A stretch of DNA of 64,000 bases, from IMG/VR virus record IMGVR_UViG_3300011912_000001; one strand, written 5' to 3'. Made by a program: the position numbers and the translations under genes. Shown here piece after piece: positions 44,650 through 48,272 of the stretch (its first letter is position 1; each line of letters begins with the position of its first letter). Source of the DNA: an uncultured virus (IMG/VR IMGVR_UViG_3300011912_000001). Taxonomy: Duplodnaviria > Heunggongvirae > Uroviricota > Caudoviricetes. Below the pieces are notes generated by a model. It had not been told where the DNA came from and did no database searches. It was given only the letters and a program-made list of their open reading frames with translations.

Positions 44650-45140
44650 TGGAAGATGGCCCTCGCTACGCCTTAGGGCGATGGCATTCCTTGTATTGTT
44701 TTCCCTCCTGCTAGAACCGTAGCGCTAGACAGAAGCCGCAAGACCGGCACGGCTCTCTTCCCTAAGTCGTGAGTACCACATACATGTTTGCTATGTAGTG
44801 ACCGGAGTTTATGTCGTCCGGTGACGGAAGGCTCTCGTAGTCCAACTGGTGATACATACCGTCACAACACGATATGCAAACTTTGCCCTGACACGCCCGT
44901 CCCATAACACGACGCATCACATTATGGAAGTAGAACCCTCAGGTGTCTACCACGATTAGGTAGGATAGCCAGAGCAAAGAAGCAGTTTTCAGACATGCTC
45001 AGGTCTAAGCAATTCGATTTTAGAAGATGCATCTTCCTCCACCGTGGTACGCAAGCGCCCACTACAATCCATGTGAAGCAAAAGAAAAAGAACCATCTGA
45101 TGCATGCAAAGAAAGTTTCTAAACACTACAGATGATTCCA
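44650..45140 (-). ncRNA. Hairpin-rich noncoding segment
   Basis: ORF-free, GC-rich, at least 8 consecutive hairpins and a small pseudoknot. Confidence 0.5.
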
Positions 45141-45526: not shown

Positions 45527-45598
45527 ATTACGAAACAACCTACGAAAGAGGCCGTTTCTGCCTAACAAGTAGGCGCATGGTACGCGTACCAATAATGT

Positions 45599-45693
45599 GA
45601 GTGCGACATGGACAATCTCCAGCCGGGATAGTCCACAGTATATTTTATCAACGGGTTTTAACCGTTGCCGCTGGGCCGGTCCACCTAGCACTC
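45599..45693 (-). ncRNA. Unrecognised structured RNA, copy A (UGGACCGGCCC motif)
   Basis: Closing stem GAGUGC/GCACUC; homologous to 46072-46159. Confidence 0.6.
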
Positions 45694-45705
45694 GTAGGCT
45701 TCATG

Positions 45706-45778
45706 TGGACCCTGTAGGACTCGAACCTACGACTACTCCGTTATGAGCAGAGCTTTCTACCAACTGAATTAAGGGTCC
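45706..45778 (-). tRNA. tRNA(CAT), probably Ile2; CCA not encoded
   Basis: Loop CTCATAA; GGACCCT acceptor typical of Bacillales Ile2. Confidence 0.85.
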
Positions 45779-45834: not shown

Positions 45835-45906
45835 TGCCTGTGGATAGGATTCGAACCTACATGTTGTCGCCTTTGCAACCGCTCTACCATTTGAGGTACC
45901 ACAGGC
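45835..45906 (-). ncRNA. tRNA-like RNA with tetraloop (AAAG) in place of the anticodon loop
   Basis: 8-bp acceptor, D loop with GG, canonical T arm, GUUGC/GCGAC stem. Confidence 0.75.
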
Positions 45907-45915
45907 ATAATAAGG

Positions 45916-45989
45916 TATCTGGAAGCAGGACTCGAACCTGCACGCACAGCCGTCGCCGTAGCTCTACCAGCTTAAGACTTATTCCAGAT
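45916..45989 (-). ncRNA. tRNA-like RNA with tetraloop (GACG) in place of the anticodon loop
   Basis: AUCUGGAA/UUCCAGAU acceptor, canonical T arm, ACGGC/GCUGU stem. Confidence 0.75.
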
Positions 45990-46071: not shown

Positions 46072-46159
46072 GAGTACGTCATGACATTCTCATGAGGGAT
46101 GCTCCCGTGTATTATTTCTCACTGAAATCAGTGCCGCCGGGCCGGTCCAAGTAGTACTC
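46072..46159 (-). ncRNA. Unrecognised structured RNA, copy B (UGGACCGGCCC motif)
   Basis: Closing stem GAGUAC/GUACUC; homologous to 45599-45693. Confidence 0.6.
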
Positions 46160-46470
46160 CTTACTCTTCGATACCTCGAATGCCTTCGGGGTTCTTTAAG
46201 AGTAAAGTATACAAAAATAAAAAGCAAGTATAAAATACAAAAAGTTTTAAAAAAATATAATGGAGCGTTTTTTTACATGAAAGGCTCCCAAAACATGACT
46301 AGATGGTACGTGCGTAGCAACACGTCCGTTTGTAAAGGACAAGCGAAAAACCTTTTTGGTAAAGACCAAGGGAAACGAACCCCTGTGGTTCGGCAAGAGT
46401 CAGGCTTCATCCTAAAAAGGAATCAATTCCCTATCACGCCTACTAAGTCGCCAGACATATTTACCTCATG

Positions 46471-46555
46471 CGCCAAGGAAAGGACTTGAACCTTTGTTTC
46501 CGGTAGCTCATTGCAAAGAACGAGCGGCACCGTACTCATCACCTGATTCCAAAGC
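46471..46555 (-). ncRNA. tRNA-like element with extended central arm and imperfect acceptor
   Basis: T arm AAAGG-UUCAAGU-CCUUU; UCAGGUGA shared with 46599-46766. Confidence 0.5.
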
Positions 46556-46598
46556 ATTATAACGGGGCGTTTTATAAAGTAAAAAGGCCCCCAAACAC

Positions 46599-46766
46599 TG
46601 TTCTTCAGAGGAATCGAACCTCTGCATGCTCACAATGATACTACTTGCTTCTACAGCTTACTAAGAGAAAGTATTGGCTGTTAAGTAACGCATTGCCCAA
46701 CATACCTCACTCGTTTTCAGACTACAAAGTTTTCGTCAAAATTGTTCCAAGTCACCTGAGAAGAAC
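46599..46766 (-). ncRNA. Expanded tRNA-like element (168 nt)
   Basis: Acceptor GUUCUUC/GAAGAAC, T arm AGAGG-UUCGAUU-CCUCU, large insert. Confidence 0.7.
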
Positions 46767-46813
46767 ATGATAAAAGAGAGGCGTTTCTGTAAAGTGGAAA
46801 GGCCTCCAAACAC

Positions 46814-46969
46814 TGTCCTGATAAGGAATTGCACCTGTAAACAATCTCTTCGACTGCCCGTTTCAACATACTAAGGTTCCAAGCGTTCGGGCGTAAAGCC
46901 GGTACTAACGTTCCCCCGTTCGATATACTTTGGTGCTTGTGTACTAGGAATGTCTCACTAGAGCAGAAC
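46814..46969 (-). ncRNA. Expanded tRNA-like element (156 nt)
   Basis: GUUCUG/CAGGAC, T-like arm AGG-UGCAAUU-CCU, repeated YUAGUA. Confidence 0.6.
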
Positions 46970-47023
46970 ATGATAAGAAAGAAGAGACATTTGGTTTTAA
47001 GTCAAAAGGTCTCCACAAAAGAC

Positions 47024-47111
47024 TGCTCTTTAAAGGAGTTGCACCTTTAGAAATGCTTATTGATATCCCTATTAGGCCCACAAACTCACATTTCCTACTA
47101 AGAAGAAGAAC
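47024..47111 (-). ncRNA. tRNA-like element without D stem (88 nt)
   Basis: GUUCUU/AAGAGC, GAAAUG/CAUUUC arm, T arm AAAGG-UGCAACU-CCUUU. Confidence 0.65.
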
Positions 47112-47187
47112 ATGATAAAAATGGGACGTTGGATTAACGTGTAAGGTCCCCAAGCACGTGTACATGTTTAAAACCAGTACAATCGGT

Positions 47188-47259
47188 TGCCTTCTGTAGG
47201 ATTCGAACCTACACGGCCGGGGTAGTGCCCCGGAATTCTACCACTTAAATTAAGAAGAC
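47188..47259 (-). ncRNA. tRNA-like cloverleaf with non-canonical loop GCACUAC
   Basis: No U33, G32-C38 can pair; no CCA; runs into a pseudoknot. Confidence 0.75.
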
Positions 47260-47336
47260 AGAATAAGAATAAAACATGACGTTTCTTTTACGTGGAAAGG
47301 TCACCAAAGCACGATGCATTTTAAGTCGGCATAGAC

Positions 47337-47408
47337 TGGTTCCCTCAGGATTCGAACCTGCAATCTTCTCGTATCCACGAGACACTTTGCCAATTAAGCT
47401 AAAGAACC
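47337..47408 (-). ncRNA. tRNA-like cloverleaf with 4-6-nt loop (U)GGAU(A)
   Basis: UCUCG/CGAGA stem; no CCA; runs into a pseudoknot. Confidence 0.75.
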
Positions 47409-47488
47409 ATGATAAAATTGAAGCGTTTTTTTAGACATGGGAAGGCTTCCAAACCCATGATGCTATGTTTTAAGTCGAGCATGCGGAC

Positions 47489-47561
47489 TGTCCTTGGTAG
47501 GATTCGAACCTACGTCTCCGCCCGGGCATGGGCAGTGTCCTAACCGCTTGACCACAAGAAC
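47489..47561 (-). ncRNA. tRNA-like cloverleaf with 6-8-nt loop (C)AUGCCC(G)
   Basis: CUGCC/GGCGG stem; no CCA; runs into a pseudoknot. Confidence 0.75.
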
Positions 47562-47586
47562 ATGATTTTTAATTTAATCATTTAAA

Positions 47587-47670
47587 GAAGGGACGTAGTC
47601 CCGGCTTTCTTTCAGTTTTTAAAAGGTTTATTGGAACAACCATTAAAAAAGAGGGGGCGTAGCCCCGGCT
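47587..47670 (-). promoter_or_regulatory. Two AGCCG-hairpin motifs (47587-47606, 47651-47670) upstream of the RNA array
   Basis: GGAC-GTA-GTCC-CGGCT and GGGC-GTA-GCCC-CGGCT. Confidence 0.65.
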
Positions 47671-47681
47671 CTCTTTATTTT

Positions 47682-48272
47682 TTAATCACTTGCCATACCA
47701 AAGAAGACGTAGTCCGAACGTCCAGCTTTCACCAGTACCTCTTTGTAACTCATATTAGCTGTGAAAACGACAGGGTCTTGATTGATTAAGCGTTTTTCCA
47801 AGACAACGCTTGTGGAATAGCCATACTCTTTTGTATAGGCAATCGCTTTCTTGACGGCATCATCTTTAAACTTTGAAAACTCTACTTGAATAGTACCTTC
47901 ATCAGTGCTGGCATATACCAAGTATAAAGATTCCCATTTACGAGCACCATTGGTTTTCATGTGGTGGCGTTTCACTTTGTCTGGCACATATTCTTTCTTA
48001 TCGTAAGAACGAAGTTTGATATACCCAGTAGGTCCAAATTTATCTGCGATTCTTGGATTACGGTCCCACTTCATCATCTCGACATAGTCTTGTTCTTTGC
48101 CTTTGTATTCAGCGGGGACGGTGATTTCGAGTAACCCCATGCCTTCTTTCTCGGCGATGGTGCCGGTATAACCACCATGACCACTATCATATTTGGCATC
48201 TCGAACAGCATGCTTAAAAGCTTCTTCTGGTGTAGCACCTGAAGCATAGGCTGTAAAGCTTGAAGAACCCAT
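47682..48272 (-). CDS. Hypothetical phage protein
   Basis: AAGGAGG RBS; GHGGYTGTIAEK. Confidence 0.7.
   Translation of the reverse strand: MGSSSFTAYASGATPEEAFKHAVRDAKYDSGHGGYTGTIAEKEGMGLLEITVPAEYKGKEQDYVEMMKWDRNPRIADKFGPTGYIKLRSYDKKEYVPDKVKRHHMKTNGARKWESLYLVYASTDEGTIQVEFSKFKDDAVKKAIAYTKEYGYSTSVVLEKRLINQDPVVFTANMSYKEVLVKAGRSDYVFFGMASD

Follow-up and report, generated by a model that had tools for sequence, protein, structure and literature searches.

A non-coding array of seven RNA units, each joining a transfer RNA (tRNA)-like domain to a covarying pseudoknot, occupies positions 47561-46262 of the minus strand, about 1.3 kilobases (kb), in a 64,000-nucleotide (nt) window from an uncultured phage (IMG/VR record IMGVR_UViG_3300011912_000001; 'the window' is this whole analysed stretch). 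Each unit starts with a U-rich leader, continues with a tRNA-like domain beginning with G, and closes with an H-type pseudoknot that we call PK-B. The array constitutes a new RNA family within the loosely known 'stable RNAs in phage tRNA clusters'.

Layout of the array in the phage genome

The window comes from a 237,343-nt phage contig that carries replication and nucleotide-metabolism genes. The host may be a member of the Bacillales, given that the helicases nearest to that of the phage, at most 46% identical, belong to the Bacillus jumbo phages WH1, KLEB27-3, Edson and 0305phi8-36. About 3 kb of the minus strand (44.6-47.7 kb) are almost free of open reading frames (ORFs) and house the tRNA genes of the phage. 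There, the array starts after the gene of a 196-amino-acid (aa) protein (47682-48272) and two terminator hairpins, both of which are also found in L138, a related metagenome contig described below. The first is an intrinsic terminator hairpin with a T-run (47654..47666, minus strand) that ends the upstream gene; the second, terminator-like one (47590..47602, minus strand) precedes AATGATTAAAT. This sequence, located between the hairpin and the first tRNA-like element, is shared by the window (47563-47589) and L138 (400-425, minus strand in both) and may represent an extended -10 promoter of the array.

A leader of 8-16 nt separates each PK-B from the G+1 of the next tRNA-like domain, and in five of the seven units it reads AUCAU up to that G. 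Knots recur at distances of 142-302 nt (start to start), the tRNA-like bodies lying in between. The ORFs that can be read inside the array (83 and 72 aa) have no PHROG match and are interrupted in a relative of about 93% identity by at least five single-base indels (46723, 46940, 46976, 46980 and 46983), and the array is therefore non-coding. A preliminary description of this DNA had listed seven units with their borders and the pairings of S1 and S2; all of these are present on the minus strand, and its view of the array as real and non-coding is upheld.

A covarying pseudoknot in every unit

PK-B runs in the order S1a (4-6 nt), L1 (YUUUG-like, 4-7 nt), S2a (G-N-N-N-C), L2 (CUU..), S1b, L3 and S2b, where S1 and S2 are the two helices and L1 to L3 the loops, and where L3 is A-rich and terminates in AAC or AAU. 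Its signature TTGGRRRCCTT..AACGYYYC occurs five times against 0.01 expected. A covariance model built from the seven window copies (R1) detected over the 64 kb these seven only, at 48.1-59.2 bits, the next best score being 12.2 bits. All lie on the minus strand, at 47420..47459 in unit 1 (S1 CAUGGG/CCCAUG, S2 GAAGC/GCUUC; 55.5 bits), 47276..47313 in unit 2 (CGUG/CACG, GUGAC/GUCAU; 54 bits), 47123..47159 in unit 3 (ACGUG/CACGU, GGGAC/GUCCC; 52.6 bits), 46984..47024 in unit 4, from the discriminator A (AGUC/GACU, GAGAC/GUCUC; 48.1 bits), 46778..46814 in unit 5 (AGUG/CACU, GAGGC/GCCUC; 59.2 bits), 46564..46599 in unit 6 (AGUG/UACU, GGGGC/GCCCC; 52.7 bits) and 46262..46297 in unit 7 (CAUG/CAUG, GGAGC/GCUCC; 53.7 bits).

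With the two copies of L138, nine PK-B knots could be compared. Pairs were counted by script from coordinates, as a MAFFT alignment misregistered S2 in three of the nine rows. All 45 cells of S2 are paired, three of its five positions covary and seven distinct stem sequences occur; S1 is paired in 36 of 36 cells and has changed in a compensatory way at three of its four positions. When the 3' strands were shuffled among units, the observed pairing was equalled in 0 of 20000 trials for S2 and in 1 of 20000 for S1, the S1 registers for this test having been chosen by hand. With the register left free and Watson-Crick pairs only, S1 forms in 8/9 cognate combinations versus 6/62 non-cognate and 901/9000 shuffled ones. 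PK-B hence shows the S1a-S2a-S1b-S2b arrangement of an H-type pseudoknot with covariation in both helices, S1 being the less supported and resting on covariation alone, and the covarying knot proposed in the preliminary description stands. We regard S2 as secure and S1 as probable, for reasons given where the mechanism is weighed.

The unpaired letters around S2 are invariant (UG before S2a, CUU after it, AA-N before S2b), and mean column identity among the copies is 68%. Each knot is followed by a U-rich tract; after the last one, an AU-rich tail (46240-46261) includes a run of 7 U. A role of the knots as intrinsic terminators was considered and rejected: a terminator scan called none, the hairpin loops closed by S2 measure 17-20 nt, and the U-runs stand apart from the stem. 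Likewise rejected was an alternative helix between the U-run of L1 and the A-run of L3, which shifts register between copies and is sterically exclusive with the well-supported S2.

Between L2 and the end of L3, a further 2-4 U-A pairs can prolong S2 beyond a C.C mismatch (once C.U), a feature overlooked in the preliminary description. The lengths of the U-run and A-run track each other in the five units with an interrupted A-tract (3/3, 2/2, 4/3, 3/3 and 4/4), the extension is part of the minimum-energy fold in seven of the nine copies, and we consider it probable. In triple-helix pseudoknots (telomerase, SAM-II, preQ1-II) and in the ENE (expression and nuclear retention element), stacked U.A-U triples arise from a U-rich strand lying in the major groove of an A-U helix. 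In PK-B, the extension is the sole place where such triples could form, the core of S2 being G-C rich. The preliminary description had called the knot 'triple-helix-type', a label that these features do not confirm: L1, with merely 4-7 nt, would on simple geometric grounds be too short to lie in register along the U-A pairs and reach the far end of S2, and for this reason we doubt the triple helix. A U-A.U triple helix in PK-B is unproven and rather unlikely. The knots, searched as short inputs at E-values up to 10, gave no Rfam match to SAM-II, preQ1-II or any ENE.

A second knot and a linker-free junction at the discriminator base

In units 1-3, PK-B is separated from the tRNA-like domain by a second H-type knot of compact form, PK-A, which the preliminary description had overlooked. 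The copy of unit 2 (47314..47337, minus strand) measures 4-1-4-1-4-6-4 nt, with loops of 1, 1 and 6 nt, S1 AGUC/GACU and S2 AUGC/GCAU. The same two helices occur in unit 1 (47460..47489, minus strand), starting from the discriminator A, and unit 3 (47160..47188, minus strand) has S1 AACC/GGUU and S2 GUAC/GUAC, so that both helices covary with respect to units 1 and 2. All four known copies, three in the window and one in L138, pair in both helices, with two types of S1 and three of S2.

In each of the seven junctions where a knot follows an acceptor stem (three PK-A and three PK-B in the window, one PK-A in L138), S1 begins at the discriminator A with zero linker, which the preliminary description had likewise not noted, and the gap between PK-A and PK-B is 0-2 nt. 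Because S1 is linker-free at the discriminator and PK-A abuts PK-B, acceptor stem, PK-A and PK-B could be stacked in one rod. Separately, the segment formed by the acceptor 3' strand and PK-A of unit 2 (47317-47352) has a 36-nt match with six differences in a different, 6.5-kb contig of the public sequencing run X1, at a depth about 7x higher; PK-A-type junctions may thus be present in another genome, although the match may be due to chance.

tRNA-like domains that cannot decode

The Rfam tRNA model (RF00005, gathering score 29) matches three of the seven units, all on the minus strand: unit 1 (47489..47561, 50.1 bits, discriminator A at 47489), unit 2 (47337..47408, 42 bits) and unit 3 (47188..47259, 45.9 bits). 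Their 'anticodon' arms are clean, G-C-rich stems of 5-6 base pairs (bp), six in unit 3, with loops of 6, 6 and 5 nt, and none of them combines the 7-nt anticodon loop, U33 and usable anticodon of a tRNA. Aragorn reads these arms as two-letter 'anticodons' or with a G-C pair opened, as its 'Ser(act)' call for unit 3 needs, and in two of the three cmscan does not align the loop. CCA follows the discriminator in 0/6 units; the bases found there are GUC, GUC, ACC, GUC, GUG and GUG, and they are paired in S1. Among the seven downstream tRNAs called by Aragorn, three (Ile, Phe and Trp) encode CCA. The tRNA-like domains therefore cannot decode, and the absence of both usable anticodon and CCA noted in the preliminary description is real.

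The same description had given every unit a tRNA-like domain, which holds as a full cloverleaf for units 1-3 (42-50 bits) and only as an acceptor stem plus T-arm, with inserts of about 50-200 nt, for units 4-7, where no Rfam match was obtained at E-values up to 10 and no Aragorn call was made. The degenerate body of unit 4 (47024..47111) has a 6-bp acceptor stem, a T-arm and one long hairpin replacing the D and anticodon arms. In unit 5 (46814..46969) the acceptor stem and T-arm enclose an insert of about 130 nt; unit 6 (46599..46766) combines a perfect 7-bp acceptor stem and a canonical T-arm with an insert; and unit 7 (46298..46555), 258 nt long, has two T-arm-like hairpins (all minus strand). 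The insert-bearing bodies of units 5-7 do not fold better than dinucleotide shuffles (z = +1.32, -0.23 and +0.01). Acceptor 5' strands (GUUCUU..) and leaders are common among units.

Relatives of the array and turnover of its units

L138 is a 1579-nt metagenome contig with a homologous upstream gene (69% identity) and the same two terminators, followed by different tRNA-like bodies, one PK-A and two PK-B (48.7 and 46.1 bits with R1). The second of these PK-B differs from the knot of unit 7 by a sole change, a compensatory replacement of G-C by A-U in S2. Closer relatives were found as contigs of public sequencing runs that span most of the array at 90-95% identity. Among the differences listed (40 of 110), at least one relative, in run X1, lacks exactly 142 nt, one repeat period, by which unit 4 is removed, and at least two contigs have unit 1 and the second terminator (47473-47645) replaced by 161 other letters. 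The 142-nt skip corresponds to window positions 46977-47120 and has its ends within repeated leaders. Two 151-nt contigs of run X7, a guessed RNA sample, cover 46388-46683 at 100% identity, which is uninformative on expression.

The knot is thus constant while the bodies turn over. The preliminary description had seen the tRNA-like scaffolds as carriers of variable cargo, a view that is weakened: the shuffle comparison of units 5-7 lends no support to a structured cargo, and relatives show indels and the loss or replacement of whole units. Given large inserts lacking a folding signal, indels and unit turnover, the conserved part is the knot and not the insert.

Wider searches found little else. 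The array had no blastn match among 50,697 phage records, to which the neighbouring 8 kb matched just by short gene fragments. A pattern scan of IMG/VR returned 60 loci, three with a complementary S2 and none with S1 or the A-rich loop, all attributable to chance; a scan of the same database for a T-arm joined to PK-A returned none, and no close relative was reached there through the upstream protein or the helicase. Pattern scans of contigs from species genomes gave 73 loci, none genuine, and of metagenome contigs 86 stretches with one genuine case, L138; among these 159 loci, a complementary S2 was present in 18 rows and the rest of the motif only in the L138 pair. The model R1 obtained a best E-value of 0.4 on the four Bacillus jumbo phages with the nearest helicases and nothing on 2 + 151 Bacillales-side genomes, a weak negative in that 38-150 of about 800-2800 first-look candidates were scored per genome. 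The covariance-model search suggested in the preliminary description thus located PK-B, beyond the seven window copies, in L138 only, and on these comparisons, several of them limited in reach, relatives appear confined so far to a narrow uncultured lineage.

Comparison with known RNA families and systems

Neither PK-A nor PK-B matched Rfam 15 above noise (8-12 bits, with inputs of 60-84 nt and E-values up to 10). Among riboswitch families (preQ1-I and others) the only row was SAM-SAH, on the opposite strand, whose 8.5 bits lie far below the gathering score of 40. As the preliminary description had anticipated, the unit is not covered by any Rfam family, the tRNA family accounting for units 1-3 only. 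We found no published account of an array alternating tRNA-like domains and pseudoknots in phages; tRNA-like candidates in phages have been reported, in the sections concerned without such an alternating arrangement (PMC10690425).

The 3' ends of MALAT1 and MEN-beta carry an ENE triple helix followed by the tRNA-like mascRNA or menRNA (PMC8457004). The array resembles them in having a compact structured element a few bases upstream of a non-decoding tRNA-like element, where a predicted RNase P cut would turn the structured element into the new 3' terminus. The parallel had been drawn in the preliminary description, and it is the order of parts that fits (structured element, short leader, tRNA-like domain with an RNase P-type site), and only the order. 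MALAT1 and MEN-beta are eukaryotic nuclear long non-coding RNAs with the element in single copy, whereas the phage knot is present in seven copies, and the two systems have no sequence or Rfam relation. The ENE of MALAT1 is a stem-loop whose U-rich internal loops clamp a terminal A-tract; the phage knot, in contrast, is H-type, with a G-C-rich S2 and an internal A-tract, and is continuous with the acceptor end of the preceding tRNA-like domain.

The tRNA gene clusters of phages provide a second comparison. That of T4 contains stable RNAs (species 1 and 2, rnaC/rnaD), and T5 has similar ones, which are not tRNAs and whose function is unknown. Like the array, they lie inside a phage tRNA gene cluster and are thought to be released by tRNA-processing enzymes; compared by description only, they differ from it in being single genes, with no alternating array and no reported pseudoknot repeat. 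The tRNA-microRNA-encoded RNAs (TMERs) of murine gammaherpesvirus 68 are RNA polymerase III transcripts from which tRNase Z cuts microRNA precursor hairpins. They share with the array the form of a viral series of non-chargeable tRNA-like elements, each joined on its 3' side to a small structured RNA, and they are processed by host tRNA enzymes, as is proposed below for the array. TMERs, however, belong to an animal virus and carry pre-miRNA hairpins 3', whereas the phage array has pseudoknots engaging the discriminator base.

Phage escape from the ToxIN system through a pseudo-antitoxin RNA has been published (PMC3475682), and the RNA antitoxins ToxI, CptI and TenpI of type III toxin-antitoxin systems, together with the phage pseudo-ToxI decoy, have been described (PMC3475682, PMC3401426, PMC4627078). 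The likeness to the array lies in repeated small H-type pseudoknots with A-rich single-stranded parts, and in this precedent for a phage RNA-repeat decoy. Type III antitoxins are tandem, near-identical repeats of 34-45 nt that adjoin the toxin gene whose product cuts them; the phage repeats, in contrast, are diverged and covarying, stand 142-302 nt apart and have tRNA-like bodies between them. No gene for a ToxN/AbiQ/CptN/TenpN-type endoribonuclease was found with Pfam and PADLOC in the flanking ORFs of the window. Finally, the discriminator domain of the T-box captures the 3' end of a tRNA by a 4-bp helix that includes the discriminator and stacks on the acceptor stem. The phage knots likewise form a helix with the discriminator base, which would stack on the acceptor stem and hide the 3' end, but they do so in cis, with no CCA and no regulatory domain, whereas the T-box is a partner in trans pairing with NCCA.

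Other elements of the tRNA cluster and the upstream gene

An unnamed structured RNA of about 95-120 nt is present twice on the minus strand inside the tRNA cluster, at 46072-46192, after the array, and at 45598-45706, after tRNA-Met. The two copies share the core UGGACCGGCCCRGCGGCA, and their consensus fold has 21 pairs, six of them kept by two-sided changes; there was no Rfam match. The 'normal' tRNA array contains two degenerate tRNA-like elements of its own (45917-45989 and 45836-45905, minus strand), both with odd anticodon arms, one reaching merely 18.5 bits with tRNA-Sec and the other 35.2 bits with tRNA and no Aragorn call. The roughly 500 nt between tRNA-Asn and the next gene (44650-45140, minus strand) hold no ORF longer than 52 aa and may house further non-coding RNA.

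The 196-aa upstream protein matched nothing in Pfam, PHROG or PADLOC. A part of about 90 residues at its N terminus (motif GYTGTIAEK) recurs in 164 of 191 IMG/VR candidate stretches, and a tblastn search returned five actinophage records by the N-terminal half only; Gordonia and Rhodococcus phages share this part and have no RNA array. Its AlphaFold model (predicted local distance difference test score 84) was uninformative, the best PDB hit, at a template modelling score of about 0.2, being a pyruvoyl-dependent decarboxylase proenzyme. Since R1 found nothing, at E-values up to 1, in 80 kept loci of relatives of this protein in IMG/VR, the gene is not tied to the array.

A proposed mechanism and its alternatives

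We tentatively favour a tRNA-punctuated RNA operon that is cut by host RNase P and in which the knot locks the 3' end of each tRNA mimic. The array would be transcribed from the minus strand as a single precursor, starting just past the two terminators, and host RNase P would cut at the G+1 of each tRNA-like module, after the ..AUCAU leader and with U at -1; a U at this position and a conserved leader are features of a good RNase P site. Each released RNA would be a tRNA-shaped body whose 3' strand passes linker-free via the discriminator A into S1 of a knot; this knot is PK-A, followed by PK-B, in units 1-3 and PK-B only in units 4-6. By clamping the 3' end into a helix that stacks on the acceptor stem, the knot would keep RNase Z, the CCA-adding enzyme and 3' exonucleases from maturing or degrading the product. 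The result would be stable tRNA mimics, unchargeable and non-decoding, with a common conserved knot that is presumably recognised. As to their function in trans, we would guess that they serve as decoys or as a sponge, titrating a host factor with affinity for tRNA or for the knot.

Several observations weigh against this interpretation. When G-U pairs are allowed in a free register, S1 forms in 9/9 cognate but also in 35/62 non-cognate combinations and its support is gone; a free search for S1 unit by unit, compared with shuffles, gave p-values of 0.27-0.98, a test without power; and the stability of S1 by itself, -1.6 to +1.0 kcal/mol, is thermodynamically marginal. It is on account of these results and of the hand-chosen registers that we hold S1 to be only probable. 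Readable copies come from just two closely related genomes and include paralogues, so that fewer independent changes have occurred than the covarying cells suggest. In unit 7, no clear acceptor stem adjoins the knot. Stacking of a helix on the acceptor end might impede not only RNase Z but RNase P too. No protein partner emerged, and the conserved gene upstream is common without the array. Finally, an RNase Z cut after the discriminator would free the knots as separate small RNAs, a rival outcome.

This outcome underlies the first alternative, in which it is the knots that are produced, the tRNA-like domains being mere processing handles: cuts by RNase P before each handle and by RNase Z after it would release seven RNAs of about 50-85 nt, each made of PK-A where present, PK-B and the U-rich tail, as a multi-copy sponge for a single protein, for example by mimicking the pseudoknotted antitoxin of a host abortive-infection nuclease (type III toxin-antitoxin) or by mimicking the target of some other knot-binding host factor. 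PK-B is indeed the sole part kept across all units and L138, whereas the bodies are variable, degenerate and subject to loss or replacement, the large ones having no folding signal; seven copies would suit a dosage or sponge role, true tRNAs flank another structured RNA, the two-copy one, in the same cluster, and the pseudo-antitoxin escape from ToxIN is a published precedent (PMC3475682). What speaks most strongly against it is that S1 includes the discriminator in 7/7 junctions, as an RNase Z cut would leave an S1 of 3 bp. The copies are moreover diverged and interleaved, unlike type III antitoxins, Pfam and PADLOC revealed no ToxN/AbiQ-type gene, and no PK-B was detected in the 153 Bacillales-side genomes, in which scoring reached only a minor share of the first-look candidates. 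We consider this explanation unlikely, although it fares better than those that follow.

Less probable still is that the array is a decaying tRNA array without any product acting in trans, its tRNA-like domains being pseudogenes of tandem duplication and its knots spacers acting in cis only, where they might insulate folding, signal processing or decay, or grade expression along the cluster by weak termination. Tandem duplication is visible in the shared acceptor 5' strands (GUUCUU..) and leaders, near-canonical cloverleaves in units 1-3 grade into wrecks in units 4-7, unit number differs between relatives, and the normal tRNA array also contains degenerate tRNA-like elements. Such spacers would not be expected to show compensatory upkeep of helices and invariant loop letters in 9/9 copies from two phages, and the anticodon arms of units 1-3, replaced by clean G-C-rich stems of 5-6 bp rather than eroded, look selected. 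A U-rich tract after every knot, with 7 U after the last, would suit weak terminators, but the 17-20-nt loops of the S2 hairpins, the U-runs not abutting the stem and the negative terminator scan speak otherwise.

A more far-reaching reading, which we regard as doubtful, would make the products capped tRNA decoys: L-shaped mimics made in large amounts, with shortened anticodon loops and with their acceptor 3' end, discriminator included, locked in cis by the knot, that titrate a host factor recognising tRNAs. Anticodon nucleases and the ribosome would have nothing to read in them, and they would escape trimming, CCA-tailing and charging; the target could be a tRNA-cleaving or tRNA-modifying defence effector, or RNase P or RNase Z itself. 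Last, PK-B has the topology of small pseudoknot riboswitches (short S1, A-rich loop 3 and short S2; compare preQ1-I) and strongly conserved unpaired letters, yet a ligand-sensing aptamer repeated to control read-through or processing of the array is very improbable, given that no riboswitch family matched at E-values up to 10 (best rows noise at 8-12 bits), that there is no downstream coding gene to regulate, and that we know of no riboswitch precedent for seven serial copies inside an RNA operon.

Significance for phage biology

Ever since work on T4, the tRNA clusters of phages have been seen to contain stable RNAs of unknown function. To these the array contributes a cleanly defined and strongly covarying new motif, fused to non-decoding tRNA mimics and subject to turnover of whole units among close relatives. 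If the knot protects or masks the 3' end of the tRNA-like domain, the array would be a bacterial-virus counterpart of the strategy seen in MALAT1 and in the herpesvirus, where host tRNA enzymes are used to make and stabilise non-coding RNAs, and it would offer a natural 'tRNA scaffold plus 3' cap' ready for RNA engineering. Phage tRNAs can overcome tRNA-cleaving defence systems (PMC11555353). If the array acts as a decoy, this would imply a host factor yet to be found, and if its products are capped tRNA decoys, they would represent an RNA-only counter-defence of an undescribed kind.

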